DNA of 64,000 nucleotides from an uncultured candidate division WWE3 bacterium (GTDB lineage: Bacteria; Patescibacteriota; WWE3; UBA101185; UBA10185): NCBI GenBank assembly GCA_963765125.1, contig CAVXUZ010000005.1:33596-97595 (forward strand), in the 5' to 3' direction. The notes under the pieces were generated by a model. That model had not been told where the DNA came from. It ran no database searches and saw only the letters and a list, made by a program, of their open reading frames with translations. Positions 10,175-57,578 of the stretch are shown piece by piece; positions within the stretch are counted from its first letter, which is position 1, and the number at the start of each line of letters is the position of its first letter. Both the position numbers and the translations under genes were made by a program.

Positions 10175-11230
10175 ATGCCAAGAGGTTCTGCCCGAAAAAA
10201 ATCTAAAAAACCCGTTAACAAACGCATTGAGAAAAAAATGCAAAAAGTTAGAAAAGTTGCAGTAGTAACTATTTTGTTTATGGTCGCAGCAACTTTTTTA
10301 AGCGGATATTTTATTTATAAAAGACTAAATTCCGAATTAGCATCAGCATTTTCCCCGTCAAGTTACAACATATTAGACCATGAAATATTTACAGTCGCAT
10401 ATTTAGAAGTAGATAATTTTCAAGATGAGCCGTTAAAAACAAAACGTGTAGAAATGTTAGTTTTTGATAAAAGTACACAAAAACTAGTGAAATATAACAT
10501 TCCTCTAAATTTGGAAATTGATGTACCCGGAAGATTTGGGGTTGAACCATTTAGCAACATATTGGCGATTGGGAAGATGGATAATAGCGAGTTATGTGTC
10601 GGTGCTAAAGTCGCCGTTGACTCACTTTTTAAGCTAATGGCGTACCCAGTTGATCGTTATGTGCTCGTTGAAGAGAGAACCGCCCCTTTGATAGACGGTG
10701 TTTTGAATGGTGAGTTACAGGCGAAAGCGATAGAAAGCGAGTTATTTCTAATTAAGGACTCCATAAAAACAAATATGTCGCTTAGGGAGTTATTTGACGC
10801 TTATTCTTTCGCCATGTCACTTCCTCGCGACCGCGTCATAACAAAGGAATATAGCATTTCTTACAGTGAAAACCCGCTTCTCTTAGACGAAGAATTTATG
10901 GATATTACCTTTGATACTGAGTTATCTAGAGAGGAGAAGAGCATCTCCATATTAAATGCTTCTGATTCTTCTGGAGTTGCAACATTGGGTGCCAGAGTTG
11001 TTAAAAACCTTAGCGGTAGGATAGTATCGGTTGGTAACGCGTCATCAACAAGAGAAAAAGGTGTAATTATTACAGACGATCTGACTTCTGAAACAACAAG
11101 AACTTTAATGAACGTATTTAACATAGAAGAAGTATTACTGGATTCTGATGCTGGAGAGTTTAATGAGAGTGAAATATCTCGTTCAGATGTAACAGTTATC
11201 CTCGGGATTGACTTTACAATATCGATGTAA
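10175..11230 (+). CDS. Membrane-anchored hypothetical protein; basic N-terminus, one TM, large extracytoplasmic domain (possibly LytR/CpsA/Psr-like)
   Basis: MPRGSARKKSKKPVNKRIEKKMQKVRK, then TM VAVVTILFMVAATFLSGYFIY, then a 280-aa domain. The architecture resembles LCP proteins but no catalytic motif could be verified. Confidence 0.35.
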   Translation: MPRGSARKKSKKPVNKRIEKKMQKVRKVAVVTILFMVAATFLSGYFIYKRLNSELASAFSPSSYNILDHEIFTVAYLEVDNFQDEPLKTKRVEMLVFDKSTQKLVKYNIPLNLEIDVPGRFGVEPFSNILAIGKMDNSELCVGAKVAVDSLFKLMAYPVDRYVLVEERTAPLIDGVLNGELQAKAIESELFLIKDSIKTNMSLRELFDAYSFAMSLPRDRVITKEYSISYSENPLLLDEEFMDITFDTELSREEKSISILNASDSSGVATLGARVVKNLSGRIVSVGNASSTREKGVIITDDLTSETTRTLMNVFNIEEVLLDSDAGEFNESEISRSDVTVILGIDFTISM

Positions 11231-16815: not shown

Positions 16816-17610
16816 ATGCATATAGATATAACAAGAAGACAAAGATTTTTTATTTTTACAGCAGCTCTTTCAGTACTTGTATATTTTTATTTAAAGCAGC
16901 TTCCTCAGATAAATATTCCACTAATTGCAATAATTGGTCTTTTAATACCGGTTGGATCATTTTGGGCGCATAGCCCTAATTCAAGAATATTAAATATAAT
17001 TGTGACAAGTATTACACCGATGGCTTTAGCCGGAGGGTATATGTTATCGATGGCATTTTTTCCAAACTTCAGTAACATATTTAAGATTGCCTCGATTGTA
17101 GTCTTTGCAAATATTTTCTACATCTTGTTATTAGTAAACAATGTATTTTTAGTGGTTGAAAGTAGGAAAGAGCCAATTCCGCTTTTTAGGGTGGCAATTA
17201 CTTGGAGTAAAATTCTGATTGCCGCGGTGGCGATTCCACTGTTGGCGGGGGTGTTTAAAATATCTGTAAACTCATTTTTTGAAGCTGGCATAACAACAGG
17301 TCTTTCGTTGTTATTTTTCATATATTTAACGTGGGCATTAAGACACGACACTGATGTTAAAACTTACAAAATAGGGGAGATTGCAGCCATTGTCGCCTTT
17401 GGCAGCTTTATGGTAACTGTAGCAAGTATTTCAGTCTCATTTATTCCTACTGAGACATTCCTAAGGGCTATGTATGTCGCATCAATTTTAATATTTGGTA
17501 TAAGTTACTTTGAGGCGCATCTAAAGAATTCCATCACAAAAAAACTAATTAATGAGCATATTGCAATCTCATTATTATTTTTAATATTACTTTTTGTATT
17601 TAAACCATAA
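16816..17610 (+). CDS. Polytopic membrane protein, unknown function (about 8 TM)
   Basis: 264 aa of hydrophobic helices. No motif recognised. Confidence 0.45.
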   Translation: MHIDITRRQRFFIFTAALSVLVYFYLKQLPQINIPLIAIIGLLIPVGSFWAHSPNSRILNIIVTSITPMALAGGYMLSMAFFPNFSNIFKIASIVVFANIFYILLLVNNVFLVVESRKEPIPLFRVAITWSKILIAAVAIPLLAGVFKISVNSFFEAGITTGLSLLFFIYLTWALRHDTDVKTYKIGEIAAIVAFGSFMVTVASISVSFIPTETFLRAMYVASILIFGISYFEAHLKNSITKKLINEHIAISLLFLILLFVFKP

Positions 17611-27685: not shown

Positions 27686-28357
27686 TCAGTTTAGATTAAT
27701 GAAGATTGTTTCTAATGCCAATCTCGCATTAACGTTTGTTTCTTCAATGTCTTTTTTAATCTCTAACGCTCTTTTCAAAAATTGAACAGAGCTCTTGTCT
27801 GCAAAATTTAACATCTCTTCCCTACCCTGTGTAATTAAATCTTCTAAAACTAATACAATCTCTTCTTTTTCAAATTTCCCAATTTCCTGAGCTAATTCTA
27901 GTTTTTGTCCAAAATCCATCATTTTAATTGTTTTTAATTTATAGTTACTTTTAATTTCTTCTGTGTCATCCCTTTCTGCGTGTATTTTTCTACACCTAGA
28001 AACAACTGTTGGAAGTAGTGAATTTTCTGTTTTTGCACTTAGAACTATAAGTACTCCTGCGGGTGGTTCTTCGAGTGTTTTTAAAAGTGCGTTTTGGGCT
28101 TGGGATGTTAGAAGGTGAGCGTCGTGAATTATTACAGCTTTATTCTTTGCGCTGTAGGCTTTAGTAGAAAGAAAGGTTGTACATTTTCTAACCAAATCAA
28201 TACCTATACTATTTTTTCCTTTTTCTTTTTTAATCACTAAAAGGTCAGGATTTTCTTTTTCAACAAGTTTTAGATTGGCGTTTTTAATGATCTCAAAGAC
28301 CTTTTTTTCGCGTATTTTTAAAGTATTTCCGATAACGAGTACCGCTCCCGATGTCAT
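27686..28357 (-). CDS. holB: DNA polymerase III delta-prime-like clamp-loader subunit (short, degenerate P-loop)
   Basis: AVIIHDAHLLTSQAQNALLKTLEEPP (sensor-1 / SRC-like arginine-finger region, typical of HolB). 223 aa. Confidence 0.6.
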   Translation of the reverse strand: MTSGAVLVIGNTLKIREKKVFEIIKNANLKLVEKENPDLLVIKKEKGKNSIGIDLVRKCTTFLSTKAYSAKNKAVIIHDAHLLTSQAQNALLKTLEEPPAGVLIVLSAKTENSLLPTVVSRCRKIHAERDDTEEIKSNYKLKTIKMMDFGQKLELAQEIGKFEKEEIVLVLEDLITQGREEMLNFADKSSVQFLKRALEIKKDIEETNVNARLALETIFINLN

Positions 28358-28419: not shown

Positions 28420-30183
28420 ATGTTTGATGCAAGTAAACAAAAAGGAATCGAAGACGTTTTAGCCGCAAAAGGTATCTTGAGCAAAGACCAACTTTCAGCC
28501 GTAAAATTTGATCACGTTAATACTGGAAGGAGCATGCACGAGATCCTTAAAGAAAGAGGCTTTGTCTCAGAAAAGGATTTCGTAGAAGCCTACGGTGAGG
28601 TTTATAACATTCCCTATCTCAATCTAGAGAGTGAACAAATAGATGAGAATATTTTTAACATCCTTCCTCTTTCAGTTTTAAAAAAGTACAAAATAGTCCC
28701 AGTTAAACTTGAAGATAAATCAAAACTACATTTAGCCATGGAAGATCCACTCGATCTTCAAACAATCGAGTTTGTAGAAAGAAAAACCGGCTACCACGTA
28801 ATTCCCTATATTGCGACGACAAAAGCATTAGAAAAGATCTTAGAAGAGTTTAAAAGTGAAGCTATTGGTGATGAAATTAGCGCTGCGTTAGAAGAAATCA
28901 CCCAAACAACGTTAAAAATTGAAGAAGGTTCTGCCGATTTGTCTGACGAAACAATAAGAGATGCGCCTGTTGCAAGAATTGTGAGCATGATTTTAGAAAC
29001 CGCTGTTAAAACCGGCGCCTCTGATGTGCACCTAGAGCCTGGTGAAGATAAGTCAAGACTACGTTACCGAGTTGATGGAATTTTAGAAGAAAAAAGAACA
29101 TTTCCTAAAGAAATGCACGATTCAATCGTTGCAAGAATAAAAATCCTTTCTAATATGAAAATTGATGAGCGCAGACTTCCTCAAGACGGTAGATTCAAAG
29201 TTCAAGTTGGCGAAACAAGCACAGATTTGCGCGTGTCGTCACTGCCGACGATATACGGTGAAAAAGCAGTTATTAGGTTGTTGAAAGAACAAGGGGTTGT
29301 TTTTAGCTACAAAGATTTAGGATTACGCGGTCTCGCGTTGAAAAGATTTGAAGCAGCATCGTTTAAACCAACGGGTATGATTCTTGTTACAGGTCCTACA
29401 GGTTCAGGAAAAACCGTCACGCTTTCTGCAGCGCTCTCTAAATTAAATACTGCGAGAGTAAACATCGTTACAATTGAAGACCCTGTTGAAATTCGTGTCA
29501 GCGGTGTTAACCAGGTTCAAGTCAATCCTCAAGCAGGATTAACATTCGCTGCAGGGCTAAGATCATTCTTACGACAAGACCCAAACATTATTCTAGTGGG
29601 AGAGATTCGAGACAGTGAAACTGCGGAGCTAGCAATCCACGCGGCATTAACTGGGCATTTAGTTTTATCGACTCTCCACACCAATTCTGCTGCTGGAGCA
29701 ATTCCTAGGTTATTAGATATGAAGGTTGAAGATTTTCTGCTCTCCTCTACCCTGAATGCTGTTTTAGCACAAAGACTTGTGAGAAAAATTTGTAATGAAT
29801 GCAAAGAGCCGTACGAACCTCCTGAGGAAATACAAAAACAAATTAGAGAAATTCTCGCCGAAGTTAAGACAAACAAAATTCTCGTTTCAAAAGATCCGGA
29901 CGTGGCAAAATTATTAAAAGAATTAGATAAACCAGCAATTACTTTATATAAAGGAAAAGGTTGCGATGTTTGTGGCCAGACAGGCTACAAAGGTAGAATT
30001 GGTATTTTTGAATTATTAGAAATGAATGAAAAGATTGCACGTTTAACGATAGATGGTAGCCCAGCAGAAACAATCGAAAAACAAGCGATAGAAGATGGAA
30101 TGCTCAAACTGCTGCACGACGGCTACTTGCGAGCTTTAGAAGGAAATACAACTATTGAAGAAGTTATGAGGGTTGCAAAATAA
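28420..30183 (+). CDS. pilB: Type IV pilus assembly (extension) ATPase PilB/GspE family
   Basis: N-terminal GSPII_E_N domains. Walker A LVTGPTGSGKTVTLSAAL. Asp/His boxes. Tetracysteine CNECK...CDVCGQTGYKGR zinc motif. 587 aa. Confidence 0.9.
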   Translation: MFDASKQKGIEDVLAAKGILSKDQLSAVKFDHVNTGRSMHEILKERGFVSEKDFVEAYGEVYNIPYLNLESEQIDENIFNILPLSVLKKYKIVPVKLEDKSKLHLAMEDPLDLQTIEFVERKTGYHVIPYIATTKALEKILEEFKSEAIGDEISAALEEITQTTLKIEEGSADLSDETIRDAPVARIVSMILETAVKTGASDVHLEPGEDKSRLRYRVDGILEEKRTFPKEMHDSIVARIKILSNMKIDERRLPQDGRFKVQVGETSTDLRVSSLPTIYGEKAVIRLLKEQGVVFSYKDLGLRGLALKRFEAASFKPTGMILVTGPTGSGKTVTLSAALSKLNTARVNIVTIEDPVEIRVSGVNQVQVNPQAGLTFAAGLRSFLRQDPNIILVGEIRDSETAELAIHAALTGHLVLSTLHTNSAAGAIPRLLDMKVEDFLLSSTLNAVLAQRLVRKICNECKEPYEPPEEIQKQIREILAEVKTNKILVSKDPDVAKLLKELDKPAITLYKGKGCDVCGQTGYKGRIGIFELLEMNEKIARLTIDGSPAETIEKQAIEDGMLKLLHDGYLRALEGNTTIEEVMRVAK

Positions 30184-35248: not shown

Positions 35249-35635
35249 ATGGAAGAAAACATTACAAAGAAAAAAACCGTACTTTTAGTTGAGGACGAAG
35301 TAGATTTAGTAGATTTATACACAGAAATATTAAACGAAGCGGGTTACGATGTACTCCCCTCTTATGACGGTGAAGATGGAATTTATAAAGTAAAAAATGA
35401 AAAATGGGATTTGTTACTTTTAGATATTATGCTCCCAGAAAAAGATGGTATGGCTGTACTTGAAGAAATGCAAAAAACTGAGGCCTCAAAAAAGGGACCG
35501 GTGGTGCTACTCACAAACCTAAACAGTGAAGATCTCATAGAACGTGCATACAAACTAGGTGCCGATGACTATTTAATCAAATCAGAAATTTCGTTAGACG
35601 ATATTGTTAAAAAAGTAAAACAGTATCTTAGTTAA
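35249..35635 (+). CDS. Single-domain response regulator (receiver only), divergent from the histidine kinase
   Basis: VLLVEDEVDLVDLYTEIL...DLLLLDIMLPEKDGMAVLEEMQ...VVLLTNL...K. Start taken at ATG 35249 (MEENITKKK); the track uses TTG 35228. The stop overlaps the start of the next gene. Confidence 0.8.
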   Translation: MEENITKKKTVLLVEDEVDLVDLYTEILNEAGYDVLPSYDGEDGIYKVKNEKWDLLLLDIMLPEKDGMAVLEEMQKTEASKKGPVVLLTNLNSEDLIERAYKLGADDYLIKSEISLDDIVKKVKQYLS

Positions 35636-36171
35636 TGTTTAAGCTTAGTAAAAAAAGAATCACAATTATTTTATTTGTTATTGTCATTTTGGCAATTACC
35701 ACAGCCGCCGTCATTTTTATACTTCCAAAGATAACAAATAAAAAAAGTGTAGTTAGAGATCAGCCAATTGCATACGAGGACACTAAAGACACAATTGTTC
35801 CCGAAGAAGCAGCAGCGTTGATAGAGTTAAATGCAATTTTAGATCCTGAAACCGACTATTGGGCAGACTGGAGCTGGCAAGCAAAATATGCAGAGTTTAT
35901 CATAAGCAATTTAAGTGTTGCTGATAATTACATTGTTGGCTACATTAGCAGACCGGTGGCGTTATCGAATAATAATGCGCAGATAGTAAAACACCCGTTA
36001 TGTGATCCTACAAAGTCGATTGCGGTTTCCAAAGATGATCCACTTAGAGGTATAAATGCAAAAGGCTTTGAATTTATGCAACGTGCAAGCTCTGGAGATA
36101 TTTTCTACACCAATTGTTTAGACGAGGAGTGTTTTAACATTGGCAATAACTGTGTCTTAGTAGAATTTTAA
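35635..36171 (+). CDS. Membrane-anchored small secreted protein, member 1 of a C-x3-C-x6-C C-terminal motif family
   Basis: N-terminal signal-anchor KRITIILFVIVILAITTAAVIFIL. C-terminus ...ASSGDIFYTNCLDEECFNIGNNCVLVEF. Clear paralog of the 40272 gene and related to 36174. Confidence 0.6.
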   Translation: MFKLSKKRITIILFVIVILAITTAAVIFILPKITNKKSVVRDQPIAYEDTKDTIVPEEAAALIELNAILDPETDYWADWSWQAKYAEFIISNLSVADNYIVGYISRPVALSNNNAQIVKHPLCDPTKSIAVSKDDPLRGINAKGFEFMQRASSGDIFYTNCLDEECFNIGNNCVLVEF

Positions 36172-36173
36172 AA

Positions 36174-36749
36174 ATGAAAAAATTAATAAACAAAAAAATA
36201 TTACGAATCTTATTAATAATACTTGGCGTTATATTGCTGGGCTTTATAGTTAGCCCATTTATTTTTAGTAAACGAGTAGAAATTAATGAGTTTGACCAGA
36301 TTTATATAAAGAGTAATAGATTTGTTTTACCTAAATTAATTTCAATAGAAAAAAGACAAGATATCGGGGTTAAAGAGGCAGGTTTAATCAAAACCGAAAT
36401 TATCTCTCCTGAGGGTAAAACTGGTATTAACGAACTTTCTTATTGGGATACGTGGACTTGGAACACAAAATTGGTAAAACTAGAAATCTTAAGAGTTTCT
36501 GTTGAAAGCGGTAATGTTTACGCAAGTCTATTACTTCCTGCCGAGTCGAGTGGGTTGTCACCAGAAAAAGAGTACGAAATCAAATGCAGTGTTGATGAAA
36601 CATCTGTTATTTATTTTCGTGATCCAGCTAATCGCAACGATGAGTATAAACCAGCGATTGAACTGTTAGCGTCCGGTGACCTGTTCTACGCATATTGTTT
36701 GGATTCTCAATGTAGTTCTCTTGGTCGACGCTGTATTATTGAGCGCTAA
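36174..36749 (+). CDS. Membrane-anchored small secreted protein, member 2 of the C-x3-C-x6-C family
   Basis: Signal-anchor ILRILLIILGVILLGFIV. C-terminus ...LASGDLFYAYCLDSQCSSLGRRCIIER. Confidence 0.55.
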   Translation: MKKLINKKILRILLIILGVILLGFIVSPFIFSKRVEINEFDQIYIKSNRFVLPKLISIEKRQDIGVKEAGLIKTEIISPEGKTGINELSYWDTWTWNTKLVKLEILRVSVESGNVYASLLLPAESSGLSPEKEYEIKCSVDETSVIYFRDPANRNDEYKPAIELLASGDLFYAYCLDSQCSSLGRRCIIER

Positions 36750-36772: not shown

Positions 36773-36811
36773 CCCATAGTTGATATTTGCCACATAATTT
36801 GAGACAATCCA
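36773..36811 (+). promoter_or_regulatory. Conserved upstream element CCCATAGTTG-N16-TGAGACAAT, copy 1 of 4 (upstream of the 36855 lipoprotein gene)
   Basis: Same bipartite motif as at 40866, 41465 and 42179. Confidence 0.4.
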
Positions 36812-36854
36812 ATTAAACTTAAATAACCCGAAAAAACAATAAAAAGGAGGCAAA

Positions 36855-37748
36855 ATGAAGACTAAGTTTTTTTCAGGGTCTTGGCTATTTAGCCGCACTT
36901 TAAAAACTCTAATTCTCGTACTACTTATTACGTCAGTTGTTATGACAATACTTATCGGCTGTACGCCTGCGACGTCAGTTCTAGTCGTAGAACCGATTGT
37001 AACTACAAACACACCGCTAATAGAGATTGTTGGCGAGTCGACAGCTACAGCAGTACCTACGGCTACCCTATTTCCGACCATGGTTGTTACGCCCGAGCCA
37101 ACTACAATGCCAGAAAATTTTGGGTGGCCCATCTTACAAGAAATGCCTTACGGTGAGGAACGTGCAGAGATTGAGGCTTCGCTTGCAAAGGACCCTAACC
37201 TTGTAAAAGGAACTCCCTCTGAGAATGAGCGGTTCATGATTGCTGATGTATGGGGTTTATGGCCACTTCTTTATAATCCAAACACAGGGATGTTACCTGA
37301 CTATTCAAATAAAAGTCTTCCAGATGACCTTTACAGTTATCTGAATGTTTGGTATAGAGGCAGTCATAAATTTTATGTCGACACCGGAACAAGTGGTAAC
37401 CCGGCGATGTTTGCAGAACAACTAGACGGTAATCTACCGATAATGTTTAAATACCCATTTGTGGTGTATGAATATGCAAATAGCACGTCGAGTAGTCTTT
37501 GCCAGTTTTTCGAAGCCGGAACGTTAGCCGGCTATGGATTGGGTGAAGAGACTGTCGATGGGCAGCCAAGTGACATACCAACCGGAATCGCATATCTGGT
37601 TGAAAGGTTTGGTGATTCTAAAATCATCAATGATGCAGACAGGCTGTACTGTAGTAACTTTGATCCTGTCTCAAACGACTTCTTAACCATAGCAAAGGCA
37701 AAAGGTTACGATACTATAGTTGCACAGGTTTTGGAAAAGCTCAAATAA
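36855..37748 (+). CDS. Putative lipoprotein or secreted protein (297 aa), unknown function
   Basis: Strong SD (AAAAAGGAGGCAAAATG). Signal peptide with lipobox-like LIGC. Thr/Pro-rich linker. An upstream CCCATAGTTG...TGAGACAAT motif is shared with the 40949, 41548 and 42261 genes. Confidence 0.5.
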   Translation: MKTKFFSGSWLFSRTLKTLILVLLITSVVMTILIGCTPATSVLVVEPIVTTNTPLIEIVGESTATAVPTATLFPTMVVTPEPTTMPENFGWPILQEMPYGEERAEIEASLAKDPNLVKGTPSENERFMIADVWGLWPLLYNPNTGMLPDYSNKSLPDDLYSYLNVWYRGSHKFYVDTGTSGNPAMFAEQLDGNLPIMFKYPFVVYEYANSTSSSLCQFFEAGTLAGYGLGEETVDGQPSDIPTGIAYLVERFGDSKIINDADRLYCSNFDPVSNDFLTIAKAKGYDTIVAQVLEKLK

Positions 37749-37847: not shown

Positions 37848-40097
37848 GTGAACAATACTTCACCTTGCCTAAAACTTAATACCATATTATTAATCCGTTT
37901 GTTAATTTTTATTACTAGTGCTTTTTTACTTTCATTTGCTACAAAAAACGTTATTTACGCAGGCTGCGCCGCAAACGAATGTGACGGACCAGGTGAATAC
38001 GAGTGCGAGAATGGAACGATGTGCTGTACAGGCGGCGGATGTCCATCAAACAGATGTCCAGCCAACTGCACTGCTAGAATTTATTCGGGTTATTGGACGT
38101 GTAATTGTACACTATCAAGAGAGGTATGTTCCATTCCTACACCGTATGATTGTGAGCCTTGCATTACTGAAAGGGTGTGTGGACCAGAGACAACATGTGG
38201 TTATGTGAGTAGTTCAACATGTGCACAATGGGCTACCCGTTCTTACCCATGTCGACAAAAGACATGTTGGTATAATTATTGTTGGTACACTTGGGGCACA
38301 TGCAAGTCAACATACTGTGCAAGATACTATCAGGTTTGGCGCTGCTCAACCACAGACGTTTGCAAAAATGTTAAAAATTGTAGTACTTGCTACAAAAAAA
38401 ATTGCTTCATAGAGTACTACGAAGATCAAACAACCTACACCGCTAGAGGTACATGTAAATACTGTACACAGGGTGGCGGCGGGGGTGGTGGCTCTTGCAC
38501 AACTAACCCAACTGCGCCTACTTTAAATACCCCATTTGAAGGTTCGTCAATGCAAGGTAGTCTAGCAATTGATTTTAGCTGGAATGCCCCGACAAGTTGG
38601 GGGGCTAATTGTACGCCCGCAAGTTACTTTCTAATGGTTGATGACGAGAGTAGTTTTACAGACCCCCGAGTGCACAGCGTGTCGTACCCAACTTCGACTA
38701 CATCACAAACCGTTACAATGCCGGGAGAAGATACTTATTTTTGGAGAGTTCAGGCGTGTAATCAACGCGGCTGTACCTCATCTGTCACGAGGTCATTTAA
38801 CTTTAGTTGCGGTATAGCTCCTGGTAGAGCAACTAACCCATCGCCGTCAGATGGTGCGACCGACGTTACTATTGCACCAACACTATCATGGGATGGCCCA
38901 TCAGATTGGGGTTCAGCATGTGGTATGAACAACAACAATAGATTCACAGTTTACGGTCAGGTTAAAAATGGAGTATGTGAGGGTCCAGGTTCTGGCTATT
39001 CTGCAATACCTTCTTGTACAAATTTACCTGAGGGTACGACATCTTGTATAGACCCATTTTTCAACACCAGCAGTACCCCTTACTGTTGGTATGTTTCCAC
39101 AAACAACGGTACAGAGACGACGCTTTCTGCCTCTACTGCTGATGAAGTATGGGAGTTTAGAACAGAAGAGCCCATCACTTATACAAATTGGGTTACTGCA
39201 TTGTTTGGTGATTTTTATGCAGGAGGTTTAACCGAGCAATACCCAAGCACAACACGCTATGTGACGCCTTGGAATCCTCCATATGCAGCATATGAAAAAG
39301 AACCTACCTCCTCTGATGAGCCAAACGTAGCACTTATCACAAGCAATGATACGGATATAACAAATGATAATGGTGCTAATGAATACAATCCCGGATCTCA
39401 ATCAAATCTATCAGTTGAATTTGCTAACTTTGAAGAAACATGGCCTGCAAGCTACCGCGGTACTCCCCCAGCTTCAGCTATTAATTTACCTTTAAATGGA
39501 GGCTCTTGTTCAGATATCTTCACAGGTAGTACAAAGCTTGATCCTTACGAAGTATATGAAGCTGATGCAAGCTGTATGTCAGAAGCAATCAATGCAGTTG
39601 ATGGTAACCCCAATGGCTATTCACTAGCCTCAGACGGTTATACAGTTATCTTTGTTACAGGAAGCACAAACCTTGAAATAGACAGTCCATTTACCACATC
39701 AAATGATGATTACCGTGTGGTATTTGTTACTGGACCTAATGTTTCAGTACAGATAGATAGAAACTTAAAGTTAGCAACCGATCCTGATTTTAACAGTGAG
39801 CCTTTAATTGAAGCTGCCTTTATCGTTACCAAAGACTTAACCATTGAGGGTGCTGCTAACGATTCATCTATAGACCTAACTACTGATCCAGATGGTTCAA
39901 TTATGGTTGAGGGTCCACTTATCGCAAGAACAGTAAACTTTAACAGAAACAGAGGTCTAACTAATCAATATCCATCAGAGATTGTTAAATACAATCCTAA
40001 CTACATATATAACCTAACAGAACAAGAAAGAACCTCTCTAAAAAACAATGGTTCAGGCCTGTTTGTTATTGATATTACTTGGATGAATGTAGACTAG
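37848..40097 (+). CDS. Giant secreted protein 1 (749 aa): signal peptide, extremely Cys-rich module, Gly7 linker, two FN3-like domains, and a conserved C-terminal domain shared with the 43554 gene
   Basis: About 40 Cys in residues 38-218 (CAANECDGPGEYECENGTMCC...CKYCTQGGGGGGGSC). FN3-like repeats with the W...Y.W.VQACN..GC...TRSF pattern. C-terminal 261 codons nearly identical at the DNA level to 44931-45714. Confidence 0.7.
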   Translation: MNNTSPCLKLNTILLIRLLIFITSAFLLSFATKNVIYAGCAANECDGPGEYECENGTMCCTGGGCPSNRCPANCTARIYSGYWTCNCTLSREVCSIPTPYDCEPCITERVCGPETTCGYVSSSTCAQWATRSYPCRQKTCWYNYCWYTWGTCKSTYCARYYQVWRCSTTDVCKNVKNCSTCYKKNCFIEYYEDQTTYTARGTCKYCTQGGGGGGGSCTTNPTAPTLNTPFEGSSMQGSLAIDFSWNAPTSWGANCTPASYFLMVDDESSFTDPRVHSVSYPTSTTSQTVTMPGEDTYFWRVQACNQRGCTSSVTRSFNFSCGIAPGRATNPSPSDGATDVTIAPTLSWDGPSDWGSACGMNNNNRFTVYGQVKNGVCEGPGSGYSAIPSCTNLPEGTTSCIDPFFNTSSTPYCWYVSTNNGTETTLSASTADEVWEFRTEEPITYTNWVTALFGDFYAGGLTEQYPSTTRYVTPWNPPYAAYEKEPTSSDEPNVALITSNDTDITNDNGANEYNPGSQSNLSVEFANFEETWPASYRGTPPASAINLPLNGGSCSDIFTGSTKLDPYEVYEADASCMSEAINAVDGNPNGYSLASDGYTVIFVTGSTNLEIDSPFTTSNDDYRVVFVTGPNVSVQIDRNLKLATDPDFNSEPLIEAAFIVTKDLTIEGAANDSSIDLTTDPDGSIMVEGPLIARTVNFNRNRGLTNQYPSEIVKYNPNYIYNLTEQERTSLKNNGSGLFVIDITWMNVD
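39267..40050 (+). repeat. 784-bp intragenomic direct repeat, copy 1 (partner at 44931-45714); in-frame coding sequence
   Basis: Base-by-base comparison of the printed lines. The copies are identical except two adjacent third-position synonymous differences at 39956-39957 (ggtcta versus gggtta). Confidence 0.85.
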
Positions 40098-40271
40098 CTA
40101 CTTTAAAATAGGGTTATGTTATTAAACCAATATTGAATTTTGGCCTGTTGATAAGGTAAGAAAAAGTCTTATGATATTGTTAACAAAACTAGACAGTAAA
40201 GACCCAGTAGATTGCGATCGCAAACTGTGTGCCAGTGTCTACTTAAAAAATAGAAATTTTGTAATTTAATA

Positions 40272-40802
40272 ATGCCCGTTAAAGATTACATACAAAAGAA
40301 AAAATTCTCCGTCACCATACTTCTGATAGTTATTGTTGTAACACTAATTACTGTAGGTTTCGTAATGCCGCTCATCACCAACCCAGAAAAAAAAGTTGCT
40401 AAAGATACAAAGACAACGCAAGTTGGAAAACTAGACGCAAACATGTTGCCATCAGAATTTGTAAAAGCGTTTTCAGAAGGGTCAATGTATTTTAAAAATT
40501 GGAACTGGCATGACAAAATGGTGCAAGTCATAATTACAGACTCAAGCGTTAGTGAAGATTCGATGGCAGGCTACATCAGAAACCTAACTGATAAATTTCC
40601 TGACAGAGAAAACAGAAGATTTTTTAACTCGTGCACGCCTGAACAAACTTTTGCTGTGTCTAACGTCAACCCAACTAAAAGCGTTTTAGCAAAAGGTTTT
40701 GGTTTAGTGAGCCGTGCCTCTGCGGGAGACATCTTATATACGTACTGTCTTGACGAAAACTGTGTAAACCTCGGCAAGAGCTGCGTGCTGATTGAATTTT
40801 AA
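40272..40802 (+). CDS. Membrane-anchored small secreted protein, member 3 of the C-x3-C-x6-C family
   Basis: Signal-anchor FSVTILLIVIVVTLITVGFVM. C-terminus ...ASAGDILYTYCLDENCVNLGKSCVLIEF. About 45% identical to the 35635 product over the C-terminal half. Confidence 0.6.
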   Translation: MPVKDYIQKKKFSVTILLIVIVVTLITVGFVMPLITNPEKKVAKDTKTTQVGKLDANMLPSEFVKAFSEGSMYFKNWNWHDKMVQVIITDSSVSEDSMAGYIRNLTDKFPDRENRRFFNSCTPEQTFAVSNVNPTKSVLAKGFGLVSRASAGDILYTYCLDENCVNLGKSCVLIEF

Positions 40803-40865
40803 ATAATCCCCTACTTTATGTTTTTTGGTTTGGTGATTTTTTTTGCGTCGGTGGATAACCGATAG

Positions 40866-40902
40866 CCTATAGTTGATTTTTATGCTGAAAATGTGAGTTA
40901 AT
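40866..40902 (+). promoter_or_regulatory. Conserved upstream element CCTATAGTTG-N17-TGAGTTAAT (putative promoter/operator), copy 2 of 4
   Basis: The same bipartite motif with the same spacing occurs at 36773, 41465 and 42179, each about 45-60 nt upstream of a secreted-protein gene. Confidence 0.45.
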
Positions 40903-40948
40903 CCTTATCAATTGTATGTGCTCAGTCAATACCGCAAAGGAGGTACAA

Positions 40949-41386
40949 ATGGCTGTTAAGAATGGCTCGGCTGTATTTGTTGTTGTGAGCGTTTTATTAC
41001 TGGTTATGGTACTTGTAGTGACGATTGTTTATATAACATTAAAACTTACTGCACCGATTGAGTTAAGGAGCTTTACGGACGTAACTGACAAAGTTATCTC
41101 TGGAGAGATTGTTTGCGCCCCATTGGGAGACGCGCAGTTAGAAAGAACAAGACTTGGTCTAAAATCAGGTCGCACCACTATAGTAAATCAACTCTACCCG
41201 AGTCATAACGTGTCAGTGGCATGTTCCTTTCTTGTGGTGCTCGAGTCAGCTAATCCAGAAGTAGTTACGATCGTTTATTACAAAAAAGGTGGAGTTAGGG
41301 TAGTGGAGAGGGTTTTAATAGACCCGCGGAATGCAGCGCAACTCTGGAAAAATGCTAAACCGGTAAATGGTAACTTAAATTTATAA
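40949..41386 (+). CDS. Small secreted/membrane-anchored protein, tandem paralog A (146 aa)
   Basis: Start at the ATG preceded by AAAGGAGGTACAAATG, which is the identical RBS context of the 42261 gene. Signal-anchor AVFVVVSVLLLVMVLVVTIVYI. Conserved blocks VISGEIVCAPLGD and VVTIVYYKKGGVRVVERVLIDPRNAAQLWKNA are shared with the 41548 and 42261 products. Confidence 0.55.
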   Translation: MAVKNGSAVFVVVSVLLLVMVLVVTIVYITLKLTAPIELRSFTDVTDKVISGEIVCAPLGDAQLERTRLGLKSGRTTIVNQLYPSHNVSVACSFLVVLESANPEVVTIVYYKKGGVRVVERVLIDPRNAAQLWKNAKPVNGNLNL

Positions 41387-41401
41387 ATTGTAGATTTGTT
41401 A

Positions 41402-41440
41402 GTCCCCATCTCTTTCACCAAGATGTGGGGATTTAATTTG
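41402..41440 (+). terminator. Stem-loop terminator after paralog A
   Basis: TCCCCATCTCTTTCACCAAGATGTGGGGA followed by TTTAATTTG. Confidence 0.4.
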
Positions 41441-41464
41441 TTTGATAGCCCAACACAAATAGTA

Positions 41465-41500
41465 CCTATAGTTGCACTTAGCAAAGATTTATGAGTAAAT
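41465..41500 (+). promoter_or_regulatory. Conserved upstream element CCTATAGTTG-N17-TGAGTAAAT, copy 3 of 4
   Basis: Same motif and spacing as at 40866 and 42179. Confidence 0.45.
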
Positions 41501-41547
41501 AGCATCAAGATAAATCCGTATATTCCACATCAAGGAAGGAGGGAAGA

Positions 41548-42099
41548 GTGGCTACAAATAACAACTTTAGTAAGGTTGTAGTTTTAATGCTTGCTGTGCT
41601 ACTGGTTGCTGTTTCAGGTTGTAATGAGACTCAGGCAAGTGTTTCACCGACCGTTGAACCAACTCTGGCACCAACGATCGTGATTAAAAATATTGCTACA
41701 ACGACGCTGCCACCAACTACCAAGCCCACGTTAGTACCAACACCTTCGGAGGAACTTGGGTCAACATCAACACCAATAGCTGTAGTAGAAATTAGATCAC
41801 TAGATGAATTGATTACTACTGTTAATAATGAAGTTATTGCTGGTGCACCCATCTGTGGAACACCCAAACTTGGGGATTCAGGAGTAACGTTATCTAACGG
41901 TTTTAAGTACTTAAGCTTAAAAACAAAAGTGTTTCCGGATTTAGAAAAAATACTTTGCCAGTACCTTATTATTATGCCAAATGAGCATACTCCAACTGTT
42001 ACAGCAGTATATTTAAGAGATGGTGTGTACCTACTTGAAAATGTAAAGATCGAAAAGAGCCTATTAAATGATTTTTGGAAAAAAGGTTTAACTGAGTAG
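41548..42099 (+). CDS. Lipoprotein, tandem paralog B (183 aa); GTG start
   Basis: Signal peptide with lipobox LLVAVSGC. Thr/Pro-rich linker. C-terminal domain VIAGAPICGTPKLGDSGVTLSNGFKYLSLKTKVFPDLEKILCQYLIIMPNEHTPTVTAVYLRDGVYLLENVKIEKSLLNDFWKKGL is homologous to the 42261 product. Confidence 0.55.
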   Translation: MATNNNFSKVVVLMLAVLLVAVSGCNETQASVSPTVEPTLAPTIVIKNIATTTLPPTTKPTLVPTPSEELGSTSTPIAVVEIRSLDELITTVNNEVIAGAPICGTPKLGDSGVTLSNGFKYLSLKTKVFPDLEKILCQYLIIMPNEHTPTVTAVYLRDGVYLLENVKIEKSLLNDFWKKGLTE

Positions 42100-42120
42100 T
42101 AAACACCTAAGTCGCAATCA

Positions 42121-42162
42121 AACCCCACCTTACTTTTTAAGAAGATGGGGTATTTTTTTAAA
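42121..42162 (+). terminator. Stem-loop terminator after paralog B
   Basis: AACCCCACCTTACTTTTTAAGAAGATGGGGT followed by ATTTTTTT. Confidence 0.45.
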
Positions 42163-42178
42163 AAGCATTTTAACATGC

Positions 42179-42214
42179 CCTATAGTTGCAAATTTACCTA
42201 AAATATGAGTAAAT
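42179..42214 (+). promoter_or_regulatory. Conserved upstream element CCTATAGTTG-N17-TGAGTAAAT, copy 4 of 4
   Basis: Reads as TTGCAA-N17-GTAAAT (sigma70-like) preceded by the conserved CCTATAG. Confidence 0.45.
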
Positions 42215-42260
42215 AACAACAGAACAAATCAACGCAAACAATACCATAAAGGAGGTACAA

Positions 42261-42764
42261 ATGAATGCGAAAAATAACCACACTAAGGTTATGGTTGTTG
42301 TTATTGTTATAGTAGCAATACTGGTCATGGGTTATACCACAGCAGACGCAGGGTATCTTCTGACAGGAAAAAATACTCTGGGATCCAAGGTTGCGCGGAG
42401 CTCAGTGTCGTCTTCGATGGCTGATTCCACCTTGATGTTCTTGCCAATATCCCTAGACGAGAAAATTGATTCTATCGCAGAAGATGTAATTGCTGGAAAG
42501 ACAGTATGCGGTGATCCAGGAGCTGACTTAACAGCCATGAAGTTTGACTCTGGATACAGATACGTAAGATGGCATGTAACAAAGTTTCCGGAGTACAAAC
42601 AGGTGATGTGTAAACTCATTGTTGTGCTACCGTCAGAAAAGTCGTCCACTGTTTTTGTTGTATATTTAAACAACGGCGATTACACGGTTAGTGAGGCCCT
42701 TGTTGATTCCAAAATACTTAAATCTTTTTGGAAAAGAAGTCTATTGATAACCACAGAATCTTGA
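42261..42764 (+). CDS. Secreted/membrane-anchored protein, tandem paralog C (167 aa)
   Basis: RBS AAAGGAGGTACAAATG. Signal-anchor VMVVVIVIVAILVMGY. C-terminal domain VIAGKTVCGDPGADLTAMKFDSGYRYVRWHVTKFPEYKQVMCKLIVVLPSEKSSTVFVVYLNNGDYTVSEALVDSKILKSFWKRSL. Confidence 0.55.
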   Translation: MNAKNNHTKVMVVVIVIVAILVMGYTTADAGYLLTGKNTLGSKVARSSVSSSMADSTLMFLPISLDEKIDSIAEDVIAGKTVCGDPGADLTAMKFDSGYRYVRWHVTKFPEYKQVMCKLIVVLPSEKSSTVFVVYLNNGDYTVSEALVDSKILKSFWKRSLLITTES

Positions 42765-42770
42765 TAGGAG

Positions 42771-42810
42771 ATCCCCACTTCAATTTTATTGGACTGGGGA
42801 TTTACTTTAT
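42771..42810 (+). terminator. Stem-loop terminator after paralog C
   Basis: ATCCCCA-cttcaattttattggac-TGGGGAT has a perfect 7-bp stem and is followed by TTACTTTAT. Confidence 0.45.
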
Positions 42811-42811
42811 G

Positions 42812-42840
42812 TTGACATAGGTGAACAATAATTACATAAT
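42812..42840 (+). promoter_or_regulatory. Sigma70-like promoter TTGACA-N17-CATAAT ending 6 nt before the GTG/ATG start of the 42847 gene (possible leaderless transcript)
   Basis: Consensus -35 TTGACA at 42812-42817. 17-nt spacer. -10 CATAAT at 42835-42840. Confidence 0.5.
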
Positions 42841-42846
42841 TTTACT

Positions 42847-43575
42847 GTGATGAATGTATTGCCCAAAAGAAACGCCATCCTGGTAAGTGTAATTATAATC
42901 TTGTTTACTCTAACGCTATTATCCATCGTGCCGTACTTAACGTTAAGAAGCTACATCAAAAGAAATGTTGATAAAAATATAGAATATGTGTTTTACGTTG
43001 AGGTAGAAGATTCATTAAAAAATTCAAAATATCCAAATCTTGCGACTTGGTACCTAAGTAAGGTACAGAACTTTTATAAAGCAGTACTTAATAGGGAGTT
43101 TCTTGTAGAGCTACCTGATTATAATACTGTTTTTCAAGCCTACGACTACACCGAATACCCAGCTGTATTTTTGGTCAAGAATTATGACTTACCAACAGAC
43201 GAGATAAGTATTGAATTTGTAATGCCCACTGATTTTGCTGAATTTACAGCAGTAGCAAAGTTGAACTGCGGTAAGGCAACAACGCGTGCTGGTGTATACA
43301 GTGCTAGCCAGCAAACCGAGAAATGGGCAATACTCAAGGAGTTACGACAGAGTAATCTTAGCGAAGAAGACAGGTTTACTTTGATTGGTAAATTATATCG
43401 CGCAATTCCGTTTGAAGAACAGCTATCAGTGGAAAATGGTGTTGGCCAGACAATTCAGGAGATGCTGGAGCGATCAGAAATAACACAGGACAAAAGGCAG
43501 CTAAAATTGGTAACAACTTGTAGAGAGGACCAGTGTGACAATACCTCTGAGCAATGTATTCTGTACATTCAATAA
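42847..43575 (+). CDS. Membrane-anchored secreted protein (242 aa), divergent member 4 of the C-x3-C-x6-C family; overlaps the start of giant protein 2 by 22 nt
   Basis: Signal-anchor AILVSVIIILFTLTLLSIV. C-terminus ...KLVTTCREDQCDNTSEQCILYIQ. Confidence 0.55.
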   Translation: MMNVLPKRNAILVSVIIILFTLTLLSIVPYLTLRSYIKRNVDKNIEYVFYVEVEDSLKNSKYPNLATWYLSKVQNFYKAVLNREFLVELPDYNTVFQAYDYTEYPAVFLVKNYDLPTDEISIEFVMPTDFAEFTAVAKLNCGKATTRAGVYSASQQTEKWAILKELRQSNLSEEDRFTLIGKLYRAIPFEEQLSVENGVGQTIQEMLERSEITQDKRQLKLVTTCREDQCDNTSEQCILYIQ

Positions 43576-45761
43576 ATATGAAAATTAATAAAAACTATAC
43601 TAATAAGAGTGCCTTACCTTTTGTAGCGTCATTGTTTCTTGCGTGTGTTATTTTGTTTAGTCCTGTTGCCGATGCAAAAATTTACAATCCTAAACCAAAA
43701 CCTGGAAAATATATTAACTGGGACAGAGTTTACAAAGAGAGAATAAATAAAATTCATGAGAAGGATGCCAAGATGGCGGCGACTTACGCAAGACTGGCAG
43801 CTAAAAACCCAGATAAGCTGAGAGATTTAATCGATACATGGGCAGCAAACAAAGGTATTACTCATGATCAGTTTAATGTCTGGGAGGTAAAGAATCTTTA
43901 TTCAATAATCTCGGGAGGAAGCGTTGTCCTTGGTAGCTTTGGGCCGTCTGCGGACTATGAGTTTATTGTCAGCGATGACGGCACAAAGATGTATTGGAGT
44001 GACGCCACCGGCGGTTATACAAGTATAACTGTACCTGCGCGTTACACTACAGTATCAGGTCAGTATGCGTCATATAATTCATCAACTGGTGTTGTTTGTT
44101 ACAGTTGGATTGGTTGTACTATACCAACTACCGCATCTAATGGAAATACAAACAATGGATGTAGTGGGCTACCTACGGCGCCACCACTTGTTAGTCCCCT
44201 CAACGGTGCAACAATCTTTGAGAATAAAACGATTAGTTTTCAGTGGGGTGCACCCACTGGGTGGGGTACAAACTGTCCAACTCATGTATATAGGCTACAA
44301 GTTGACGACGAAAACACGTTTAGTGAGCCTTCTGCTTTAGATTCTGGTTTTGATGGTAGTACAACCTCAACGACAGCAGATTTTACTTTAAATAAAGAGT
44401 ACTTTTGGAAAGTTCAAGCTTGTAACGCAAAAGGATGCACCCCCTCTGTAACAAGATCATTCATACTTGGTTGCGGTATCGCTCCAGGAGTTGCATCAAA
44501 CCCAACACCTTCAGACGGTGCAATAGATGTAGTTATTGCACCAACACTGTCTTGGGATGGTCCATCCGATTGGGGCTCAGCATGCGGTATGGATAACAAT
44601 AATACATTTACGGTATACGGTCAGGTTAAAAATGGACTGTGTGAAACTCCAGGCCCAGGTTATTCTGCAATTCCAACTTGTACAAACCTCTCTGAAGCAT
44701 CAACATCTTGTGTAGATCCATTCTTTAACACTCGAAGCACACCATATTGCTGGTATGTAGGAACAAACAATGGAACAGAAAGTAATACGTCAGCAGCAAC
44801 AGCTGACCAAGTATGGGAGTTTAGAACTGAAGACCCCCTTCTCTTTGAAAACTGGGTAACCACACTTTTTGGTGATTTTTATGCAGATACTCTTGCAGAA
44901 CAATATCCTAAATCAGCAAACTACGCATCCCCTTGGAATCCTCCATATGCAGCATATGAAAAAGAACCTACCTCCTCTGATGAGCCAAACGTAGCACTTA
45001 TCACAAGCAATGATACGGATATAACAAATGATAATGGTGCTAATGAATACAATCCCGGATCTCAATCAAATCTATCAGTTGAATTTGCTAACTTTGAAGA
45101 AACATGGCCTGCAAGCTACCGCGGTACTCCCCCAGCTTCAGCTATTAATTTACCTTTAAATGGAGGCTCTTGTTCAGATATCTTCACAGGTAGTACAAAG
45201 CTTGATCCTTACGAAGTATATGAAGCTGATGCAAGCTGTATGTCAGAAGCAATCAATGCAGTTGATGGTAACCCCAATGGCTATTCACTAGCCTCAGACG
45301 GTTATACAGTTATCTTTGTTACAGGAAGCACAAACCTTGAAATAGACAGTCCATTTACCACATCAAATGATGATTACCGTGTGGTATTTGTTACTGGACC
45401 TAATGTTTCAGTACAGATAGATAGAAACTTAAAGTTAGCAACCGATCCTGATTTTAACAGTGAGCCTTTAATTGAAGCTGCCTTTATCGTTACCAAAGAC
45501 TTAACCATTGAGGGTGCTGCTAACGATTCATCTATAGACCTAACTACTGATCCAGATGGTTCAATTATGGTTGAGGGTCCACTTATCGCAAGAACAGTAA
45601 ACTTTAACAGAAACAGAGGGTTAACTAATCAATATCCATCAGAGATTGTTAAATACAATCCTAACTACATATATAACCTAACAGAACAAGAAAGAACCTC
45701 TCTAAAAAACAATGACTCAGGTCTGTTTGTTGTTGATGTTACTTGGATTAGCGACGAATGA
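43554..45761 (+). CDS. Giant secreted protein 2 (735 aa): signal peptide, non-Cys-rich N-terminal domain, FN3-like domains, and the same conserved C-terminal domain as the 37848 gene
   Basis: Signal peptide ALPFVASLFLACVILFSPVADA. The FN3-like region is 70-85% identical to protein 1. The C-terminal 261 codons (44931-45714) are nearly identical in DNA to 39267-40050. Confidence 0.7.
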   Translation: MYSVHSINMKINKNYTNKSALPFVASLFLACVILFSPVADAKIYNPKPKPGKYINWDRVYKERINKIHEKDAKMAATYARLAAKNPDKLRDLIDTWAANKGITHDQFNVWEVKNLYSIISGGSVVLGSFGPSADYEFIVSDDGTKMYWSDATGGYTSITVPARYTTVSGQYASYNSSTGVVCYSWIGCTIPTTASNGNTNNGCSGLPTAPPLVSPLNGATIFENKTISFQWGAPTGWGTNCPTHVYRLQVDDENTFSEPSALDSGFDGSTTSTTADFTLNKEYFWKVQACNAKGCTPSVTRSFILGCGIAPGVASNPTPSDGAIDVVIAPTLSWDGPSDWGSACGMDNNNTFTVYGQVKNGLCETPGPGYSAIPTCTNLSEASTSCVDPFFNTRSTPYCWYVGTNNGTESNTSAATADQVWEFRTEDPLLFENWVTTLFGDFYADTLAEQYPKSANYASPWNPPYAAYEKEPTSSDEPNVALITSNDTDITNDNGANEYNPGSQSNLSVEFANFEETWPASYRGTPPASAINLPLNGGSCSDIFTGSTKLDPYEVYEADASCMSEAINAVDGNPNGYSLASDGYTVIFVTGSTNLEIDSPFTTSNDDYRVVFVTGPNVSVQIDRNLKLATDPDFNSEPLIEAAFIVTKDLTIEGAANDSSIDLTTDPDGSIMVEGPLIARTVNFNRNRGLTNQYPSEIVKYNPNYIYNLTEQERTSLKNNDSGLFVVDVTWISDE
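44931..45714 (+). repeat. 784-bp direct repeat, copy 2 (partner at 39267-40050)
   Basis: See copy 1. Identity breaks exactly at both ends (g/c before, g/a after). Confidence 0.85.
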
Positions 45762-57362: not shown

Positions 57363-57492
57363 GGTGCGGGAGGATGGATTCGAACCACCATTTCCGTGCG
57401 AAGTTGGTTCAACATGGGCATTAAGGCCTGATACGCCAGAACACACTCGGCATGTTAACTACCACGGCGCCTTACCACTAGGCCACTCTCGC
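57363..57492 (-). tRNA. Atypical tRNA-like gene (130 nt): canonical acceptor, D and T arms, with a roughly 57-nt insertion within the anticodon loop; isotype undetermined
   Basis: Acceptor GCGAGAG/CTCCCGC (one A:C mismatch). T8. D-arm GCCT-AGTGGTA-AGGC. Anticodon stem CCGTG...CACGG separated by 64 nt. Variable loop AAAT. T-arm GGTGG-TTCGAAT-CCATC. Discriminator A plus CC. Confidence 0.45.
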
Positions 57493-57504: not shown

Positions 57505-57578
57505 AGCGGGTGGATGGATTCAAACCACCGACCTCTACGTTATCTACGTAGCGCTCATCTCAGCTGAGCTACACCCGC
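57505..57578 (-). tRNA. tRNA-Ile (anticodon GAU)
   Basis: Acceptor GCGGGTG/CACCCGC. D-arm GCTC-AGCTGAGAT-GAGC. Anticodon stem CTACG/CGTAG with loop TAGATAA. T-arm GGTGG-TTTGAAT-CCATC. CCA not encoded. Confidence 0.8.

Follow-up and report, generated by a model that had tools for sequence, protein, structure and literature searches.

The stretch of DNA analysed here, referred to below as the window, comprises 64,000 nucleotides (nt) from an uncultured candidate division WWE3 bacterium, and within it three small genes, the trio, lie in tandem on the forward strand: copy 1 at 40949-41386 (145 residues), copy 2 at 41548-42099 (183 residues, with a GTG start) and copy 3 at 42261-42764 (167 residues). 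A preliminary description of this DNA had taken the three for tandem paralogs on account of short shared amino acid blocks. This was borne out by BLASTP, where copy 2 matched copy 3 with an E-value of 2e-22 and copy 1 matched copy 3 with an E-value of 1e-7, and by the alignment of the three proteins, in which the quoted blocks are present and 22 columns are invariant, with two cysteines among them as well as the VI[SA]G..[VI]C, FP, VY..G and WK blocks. No further copy was found in the 64-kb window by six-frame hmmsearch. An open reading frame (ORF) of 181 residues on the reverse strand (41631-42176), which lies almost entirely opposite copy 2, was rejected as spurious because the frame of copy 2 is backed by paralogy.

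All three proteins begin with M-[AN]-x-[KN]-N… and then run into a hydrophobic stretch. In copy 1 about 24 hydrophobic residues, the motif LTAP and a very short linker lead into a domain of about 105 residues carrying the two cysteines, and the N-terminus would act as a membrane anchor that is not cleaved off. Copy 2 has a lipobox, V-S-G-C25 (LLVAVSG-C25), and a Thr/Pro/Val-rich linker of about 50 residues before its two-Cys domain, and its N-terminus can be read as a lipoprotein signal providing a lipid anchor. Copy 3 has an h-region of 14 residues and an A-D-A|G motif, at which a Sec signal peptide would probably be cleaved by signal peptidase I, and a Ser-rich linker of about 30 residues precedes the two-Cys domain. 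The designation lipoprotein-like, which had been given to all three genes, suits copy 2 with its lipobox VSGC and does not suit copies 1 and 3, which have no Cys in the signal region; when the bacterial lipoprotein pattern [LVI][ASTVI][GAS]C was applied it was found in copy 2 alone of the three copies, and the other two have no Cys within their first 50 residues. Because each protein combines an N-terminal hydrophobic signal or anchor with two conserved cysteines, the products of the trio are predicted to be exported, and the domain of about 105 residues is consistent with an extracytoplasmic, disulfide-bonded fold.

Each gene of the trio is preceded by a promoter-like element made of two boxes. 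The first box, CCTATAGTTG, has an exact match at just three places in the window, 40866, 41465 and 42179, and is followed each time by a second box of the form TGAGTWAAT. For copy 1 the element spans 40866-40902 and consists of CCTATAGTTG, an 18-nt spacer and TGAGTTAAT, while for copy 2 (41465-41500) and copy 3 (42179-42214) it consists of CCTATAGTTG, a 17-nt spacer and TGAGTAAAT. The preliminary description had noticed such an element before every copy and rightly so, although the uniform 17-nt spacer that it gave is wrong for copy 1. Three matches to TAGTTG-N16-19-TGAGT were counted against 0.09 expected, and none of 100 shuffled sequences reached three. A relaxed scan brought out a fourth site, missed earlier, in which CCCATAGTTG-N17-TGAGACAAT spans 36773-36808 about 4 kb upstream of the trio. 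The whole of this fourth cassette (36773-36854, forward strand) is composed of CCCATAGTTG, a 17-nt spacer, TGAGACAAT and a 46-nt leader with AAGGAGG at 36844-36850, and it leads into a gene at 36855-37748 on the same strand for a lipoprotein of 297 residues with the lipobox LIGC and a Thr/Pro linker. Homology of this protein to the trio was rejected, its mature part being unrelated (hhalign probability 0.3%); its signal and linker alone weakly resemble copy 2 (E = 0.013).

Downstream of the boxes, the Shine-Dalgarno (SD) sequence AAGGAGG lies on the forward strand at 40937-40943 in copy 1, 5 nt before the ATG, at 41536-41542 in copy 2, 5 nt before the GTG, and at 42249-42255 in copy 3. Since the SD lies 5 nt before 40949, this position was taken as the start of copy 1 and not the upstream ATG at 40916. 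The identical context of the ribosome-binding site (RBS) claimed for two of the copies is indeed present, copies 1 and 3 sharing AAAGGAGGTACAAATG, and copy 2 has GGAAGGAGGGAAGAGTG. Out of five occurrences of AAGGAGG in the window four are the RBSs of the trio and of gene 36855, and exactly these four among 62 candidate genes show an SD complementarity of at least 7 nt, while 54 of the 62 have 4 nt or less. The end of box 2 is separated from the start codon by 46, 47, 46 and 46 nt in the four units and, given a purine 7-8 nt past box 2 and its hexamer, a leader of about 40 nt is implied; a consensus RNA fold of the four leaders gave no consensus secondary structure. Elsewhere in the window a TATAAT-like hexamer was seen 6-12 nt before the start codon of many genes without an SD, for example at 28357 on the reverse strand and at 28420, 42850, 47791 and 60883 on the forward strand, and at a gene for a protein of 242 residues a TTGACA-17-CATAAT ends 7 nt before its GTG/ATG start. 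As such a hexamer stands 6-12 nt before the ATG in several neighbours, many genes of the window may be translated from leaderless mRNAs.

At the 3' ends of the genes, the pattern CCCCA-N-TGGGG was found only three times in the window, each time 8-23 nt past a stop codon of the trio, against 0.25 occurrences expected. The hairpin of copy 1 lies at 41404-41430 on the forward strand (CCCCATCT…AGATGTGGGG, then ATTTAATTTGTTT), with the next promoter box 34 nt downstream; that of copy 2 lies at 42123-42150 on the same strand and is followed by TATTTTTTT, with the next promoter box 28 nt downstream; and that of copy 3, likewise on the forward strand at 42773-42799, is followed by ATTTACTTTATGTT and is the most stable of the three. 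Their folding energies are -17.3, -12.2 and -22.1 kcal/mol for copies 1, 2 and 3, respectively, and compared with shuffled sequence the hairpin of copy 3 has a z-score of -3.9 and that of copy 2 a modest -1.4. The consensus hairpin has 13 pairs, and three inner pairs show compensatory changes. The CCCCA…TGGGG hairpin reported earlier after each copy was therefore confirmed, as it is unique to the three 3' ends and folds stably, and the mono-cistronic units proposed along with it are plausible, each gene having its own promoter-like element, a strong RBS and a hairpin. An integron-like cassette array of ORFs and hairpins was also considered and rejected: the hairpins are 27 nt long, there are no attC-like cores and no adjacent integrase, and the genes have their own promoter-like elements.

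When the three units were compared, codon-aligned pairs were 28-31% identical in amino acids and 44-49% identical in nucleotides, and the third codon positions were 31-37% identical, about the expectation from base composition. From copy to copy, identical letters occupy 4-8 of 17 positions in the promoter spacers, 7-13 of 30 in the leaders (SD excluded) and 10-14 of the 40 nt upstream of box 1, and no tract longer than about 10 nt is shared among the flanks of the trio. Amid these random-like surroundings box 1 matches at 10 of 10 positions and box 2 at 8-9 of 9 among the three paralog promoters (9 of 10 and 7 of 9 for the fourth site), and every one of the four units retains a complete AAGGAGG core. 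Since amino acid identity is low, third positions are saturated and spacers and leaders are random-like, the copies are old and anciently diverged; and since only the boxes and the SD are conserved, the shared flanks are best read as short cis-elements under purifying selection and not as the outcome of gene conversion. The recent duplication and the homogenised flanks of the preliminary description did not withstand this comparison, the protein and third-position identities speaking against the one and the multiple alignment, with only box 1, box 2 and the SD conserved, against the other. Neither are the flanks a duplication relic of the trio family alone. Because the same cassette precedes the unrelated gene 36855, we take it as an expression cassette and a probable mark of co-regulation, not as a by-product of duplication.

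Searches for the trio family outside the window found nothing beyond the family itself. A profile of the three proteins gave self matches only against 5.8 billion clustered proteins in a word-index search, and a profile of the domain gave only the three self matches, plus weak ones, against 1.84 billion representative proteins with exhaustive HMMER; three marginal multi-stretch HMMER matches to immunoglobulin-like HYR/TQ repeats in giant proteins were judged non-specific. For the trio there was nothing above the cut-off in Pfam, no match in PHROGs, no homologue in viral contigs and, in PDB sequences, a best match with an E-value of 0.22. Rfam, applied to the region and to the whole window, placed no RNA family in the trio region. 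AlphaFold2, run from the three-sequence alignment, gave models of five strands and a C-terminal helix with a predicted local distance difference test (pLDDT) score of 46.6 and 61.1, and when the pLDDT-61 model was compared with PDB by Foldseek the best match had an E-value of 0.23 and a template modelling (TM) score below 0.3, so that no fold match was obtained. The trio is an orphan, lineage-restricted family. Within the window, a homologous relationship of the trio with another group of small proteins, the second family (35635, 36174 and 40272), or with the 242-residue protein was rejected, the hhalign probability being 0.3% in both cases. An identification of copy 2 as PamR, the RbmA-like protein of the Pam pilus in the candidate phyla radiation (CPR) (NCBIfam NF058578; bioRxiv 10.64898/2026.03.03.709456), was likewise rejected, as copy 2 scored 23.2 bits against a cut-off of 300 (E = 2.8e-5) over residues 10-105 only. 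PamR and the weakly matching copy 2 are alike in that both belong to the envelope of CPR bacteria and carry a signal at the N-terminus and a region rich in Thr and Pro, but the match is confined to the signal and the low-complexity linker of copy 2, and copies 1 and 3 are unmatched. Of the window genes that were run against Pfam or NCBIfam, none resembled a component of the pam operon.

The window is a chromosomal segment, with genes for DnaB, EF-P, RF, GyrA/B and H+-PPase and a GC content of 38%. The closest named homologues of its PilD come from Patescibacteria and candidate division WWE3, the top match being 72% identical, and the genome can be taken as WWE3-like Patescibacteria. The trio belongs to the accessory genes of a CPR type IV pilus cluster, with the core pil genes on one side and the block of minor pilins on the other. 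Upstream of it PilB (28420), PilT, PilC, a pilin and PilD are encoded in that order, followed by a histidine kinase on the reverse strand, a receiver-only response regulator, the small membrane-anchored paralogs 35635 and 36174, the 297-residue lipoprotein (36855), a Cys-rich protein of 749 residues (37848) and the third member of the small family (40272). Downstream of the trio come the gene for the 242-residue protein (42847) and a paralog of 735 residues (43554) of the 749-residue protein, then a gene for a 288-residue protein of no known family (45975), which had no match in Pfam or NCBIfam and which we call PilX-like from its position and N-terminus, and further on several minor pilins, beyond which the size and position alone of three genes suggest PilM/N/O-like products. 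The Pfam N_methyl motif is present in the neighbours 32599, 46801 and 47291.

The gene order GyrB, HolB, PilB/T/C, pilin, PilD, histidine kinase and response regulator is common to the relatives, and the accessory region is poorly conserved among them. Two of the relatives (L065 and L064) have a single large gene with a PilX-like gene directly 3' of it; identity is 42-49% between the C-terminal half of the large gene and the two large paralogs of the window, and 60-62% between the PilX-like gene and 45975. Since the trio, the 242-residue and the 297-residue proteins had no homologue in any relative locus by tblastn and by an unfiltered profile search, the block 40098-45761 is a lineage-specific expansion. 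Assemblies of the relatives often break in the accessory region. Two contigs of related WWE3-like genomes from Joint Genome Institute (JGI) metagenomes, L022 (86 kb) and L023 (107 kb), end right after the histidine-kinase gene adjoining PilD, that is, where the variable region begins, which suggests repeats or polymorphism of this region in those populations as well. The second small-protein family, N-terminally anchored and with a C-terminal CxxExCxNxGxxCxL, is encoded at 35635-36171, 36174-36749 and 40272-40802, and in every relative examined (L021, L063, L064 and L065) homologues of it come after the gene for the response regulator. The 242-residue protein (42847-43575) is tentatively placed in this family, the two having in common a C-terminal three-Cys motif (E = 0.006 in a search of 29 proteins). 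Outside the cluster, a tRNA on the reverse strand at 57365-57492 (Rfam, 45.7 bits), uncalled by ARAGORN and adjoining tRNA-Ile(GAT) at 57505-57578, has 64 nt in place of the 7-nt anticodon loop, so that about 57 nt would be an insertion or intron.

The trio is also bracketed by a large direct repeat. Its upstream arm (39267-40050) lies inside the 749-residue gene (37848-40097) and its downstream arm (44931-45714) inside the 735-residue paralog (43554-45761), both on the forward strand, and between the arms, which are 5664 bp apart, lie gene 40272, the trio and gene 42847. The arms match over 784 bp with two mismatches, including a run of 689 bp that is 100% identical, while the flanks of this tract are 70-80% identical and the N-terminal 200 or so residues of the two large proteins are unrelated. 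The repeat looks like the signature of a recent gene conversion of the C-terminal halves, and it could serve as a substrate able to delete or amplify the 5.7-kb interval that carries the trio. In the Logan assemblies ERR15459710 and ERR12035938 exact copies 2 and 3 were found on contigs of about 3.3 kb, which start at about 41487, inside the promoter of copy 2, and end where the large repeat begins. For copy 1 these two assemblies have no exact protein on record, which could be due to an assembly break or to strain variation.

As regards the nature of the two boxes, their geometry, with a TTG, 17 or 18 nt and a hexamer preceded by TG-n, is of the sigma-70 type, and we predict that the TTG in CCTATAGTTG is a -35 core and that TGAGTTAAT is a TG-extended -10-like element. 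TRTGnTATAAT is the TG-extended -10 promoter in Gram-positive bacteria. The cassette resembles TG-extended -10 promoters of sigma-70 and sigma-A in its TTG, its spacer of 17-18 nt and a TG 2-3 bases before a hexamer ending in AAT, and differs from them in its hexamers, GTAAAT (twice), GTTAAT and GACAAT at the four sites with 3-4 of 6 positions matching TATAAT, and in an invariant CCYATAG directly 5' of the -35 TTG, which is outside the canonical consensus. The positional analogues of 36855 in the relatives each have their own intergenic promoter and a strong SD, and in an alignment (A9) of the promoters that precede these analogues in four relatives the TTGATA-N17-GACAAT of the window falls in register with TTGATA-N17-TATAAA (L065), TTGCAA-N17-TATAAA (L063) and TTGCAC-N17-TATATA (L021). 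This in-register alignment speaks for a -35 element at the TTG of box 1 and for a -10 region at box 2. Public collections, which did not include the source genome, were also scanned for CCTATAGTTGN{17,18}TGAGWNAAT, and 19 single matches were obtained in species-representative genomes and 37 in metagenomes; as these are scattered over unrelated taxa, with no contig having two or more, they are at chance level. In the relative L064, two strongly SD-led pilus-accessory genes share [CT]TATAGTGTATAA[AG] at their -10 regions (10985-11000 and 17490-17510), a motif which holds the CTATAG/TTATAG core of box 1 of the window at another promoter position and which could be a coincidence or a related regulatory signal.

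Combining these observations, we put at roughly 60% the probability that each gene of the trio is transcribed on its own and strongly translated, that the three are co-regulated, and that they are old paralogs of an orphan domain on three tethers, within a lineage-specific expansion of a pilus locus. Each gene would be a self-contained unit, probably transcribed independently, in which a promoter of the sigma-70 type is followed by about 40 nt of unstructured leader with a near-perfect SD, then by the ORF and a hairpin terminator, and the flanks would be functional cis-elements. The products would carry the lineage-restricted, extracytoplasmic two-Cys domain of about 105 residues tethered in three ways, by a membrane anchor, by a lipid anchor with a Thr/Pro linker of about 50 residues, and through a cleavable signal with a Ser-rich linker, and they would be encoded within a fast-evolving accessory region between two large adhesin-like paralogs. 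Because the same cassette seems to drive the 36855 lipoprotein gene 4 kb upstream, these four genes are probably co-regulated and would form a small, highly expressed set of envelope proteins. Several points weigh against this model. Promoter use, transcription start sites and termination are predictions from sequence, and the putative regulon consists of four sites in 64 kb. The hexamers lack the canonical T-12/A-11 of the neighbouring promoters, three of the four sites having G at -12 and T at -11; a generic promoter scan listed only the site at 36780-36808 among the four; and box 1 contains TATAGT, a 5/6 match to the -10 hexamer, which allows another promoter reading. A run of T7 follows the hairpin of copy 2, interruptions break up the T-tracts after copies 1 and 3 and make read-through possible, and a generic terminator scan, requiring a loop of 8 nt at most and a T-run, listed none of the three hairpins. 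The AlphaFold models, finally, are of low confidence (pLDDT 46.6 and 61.1) and without a fold match.

The interrupted T-tracts, the hairpins missed by the terminator scan and the modest z-score of the copy 2 hairpin would all suit a single operon, transcribed from the first promoter or from further upstream with read-through, in which the hairpins would attenuate transcription in part or stabilise the mRNA and the internal boxes would have little or no activity, and the genes of the region do lie all on one strand. It is hard to see in such an operon why the boxes, their spacing and the leader length should have been kept in copies 2 and 3 despite saturated divergence, and a hairpin followed by a promoter 28-34 nt further on is the classic layout of separate units; we consider the operon quite improbable. 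We find it still harder to maintain that the trio arose by a recent tandem triplication whose flanks are being homogenised and whose products are alternatively expressed surface proteins with phase or antigenic variation, as the preliminary description had it. The tandem layout, the identical boxes, the two identical RBS contexts and the exported products would agree with this, and so would the real gene conversion nearby and the breaks of the relatives' assemblies in the region. However, the amino acid identity is about 30%, third positions are saturated and nothing longer than about 10 nt is homogenised, whereas the true conversion next to the trio, with its 689 bp at 100%, looks quite different, which argues that the trio flanks were not homogenised; and the same cassette stands before an unrelated gene. 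If the copies were switched, features of switching would be expected around them. No simple-sequence tracts were found by Tandem Repeats Finder in the promoters or 5' coding regions, a trivial GTTATT x3.8 in the signal-peptide region of copy 3 being all that was noted, no inverted repeats flank the promoters of the trio, and there is no recombinase near it, the only one found being a tyrosine recombinase/integrase-family gene at 18469, 22 kb away. With a nucleotide identity of 44-49% the copies themselves are too diverged to recombine or to serve as conversion donors. Switching of the vlp/vsp type relies on homopolymer tracts in promoters, on site-specific inversion or on recombination among highly similar repeats. 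The trio is like the Mycoplasma vlp/vsp genes in being a set of adjacent genes for small envelope-tethered proteins, each with its own conserved promoter and RBS, but it has none of their switching features, and one lipoprotein among three copies. Phase or antigenic diversification is not supported, and the model of recent triplication with such variation is very improbable.

The TATAGT in box 1 bears on a further possibility, that the boxes do not form one sigma-70-type promoter and that either TATAGT is the -10, with box 2 as an operator or leader element, or the boxes are the target of an alternative sigma factor or activator. The scan did pick TTTAAA-18-TATAGT at 42157-42186, CCYATAG and the GAG of box 2 are invariant yet outside the canonical consensus, neighbours use canonical TTGACA-17-TATAAT-like promoters (TTGACA-17-CATAAT at 42812-42840 and TTGATA-16-TATGAT at 40148-40175), and the cluster also has genes for a histidine kinase and a receiver-only response regulator. 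On the other hand, no consistent -35 lies upstream of TATAGT in the four sites, the 17/18-nt spacing between TTG and hexamer and the in-register promoters of the relatives favour the simple reading, no sigma-factor gene was seen among about 40 window genes scanned, and the response regulator is without a DNA-binding domain. We therefore hold this alternative, which overlaps with the sigma-70 model, to be unlikely. As the hexamers are non-canonical, with G at -12, and CCYATAG has no counterpart in the consensus, the cassette may depend on an extra factor. It is also conceivable, though doubtful, that CCYATAGTTG-N17/18-TGAGWNAAT, the leader of about 40 nt and the perfect SD together mark a dedicated, factor-dependent regulon of host-contact envelope proteins in the pilus cluster of a WWE3 episymbiont, most of whose genes have no SD or are leaderless, and that the two-Cys domain is deliberately displayed on three types and distances of tether, one being integrally anchored, one held by a lipid on a long Thr/Pro stalk, and the third released or associated with the wall.

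Returning to independent, co-regulated units of old paralogs, the trio represents an ordinary gene organisation around an orphan family and no new type of system. In comparison with the accessory sets of Patescibacteria type IV pili, the trio is alike in lying inside a CPR pilus cluster beside large Cys-rich adhesin-like proteins, and different in that its products are not pilins, no type IV pilin or pseudopilin class III signal (PF07963, G|FTLIE) having been found in them with Pfam, and in having no homologue in the relatives. It provides a clean natural example of discrete cis-elements that would persist while their surroundings, the coding sequence included, diverge to saturation. It also pins down a candidate strong promoter and RBS cassette for a lineage of Patescibacteria, as predicted here, which could serve genetic tools or the annotation of similar genomes. 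Type IV pili are implicated in the binding of episymbionts to their hosts in Saccharibacteria, as described in PMC12206443. The trio belongs to what appears to be a lineage-specific block of exported proteins in a pilus locus that is thought to mediate host attachment, and this makes its products candidate host-specificity factors.

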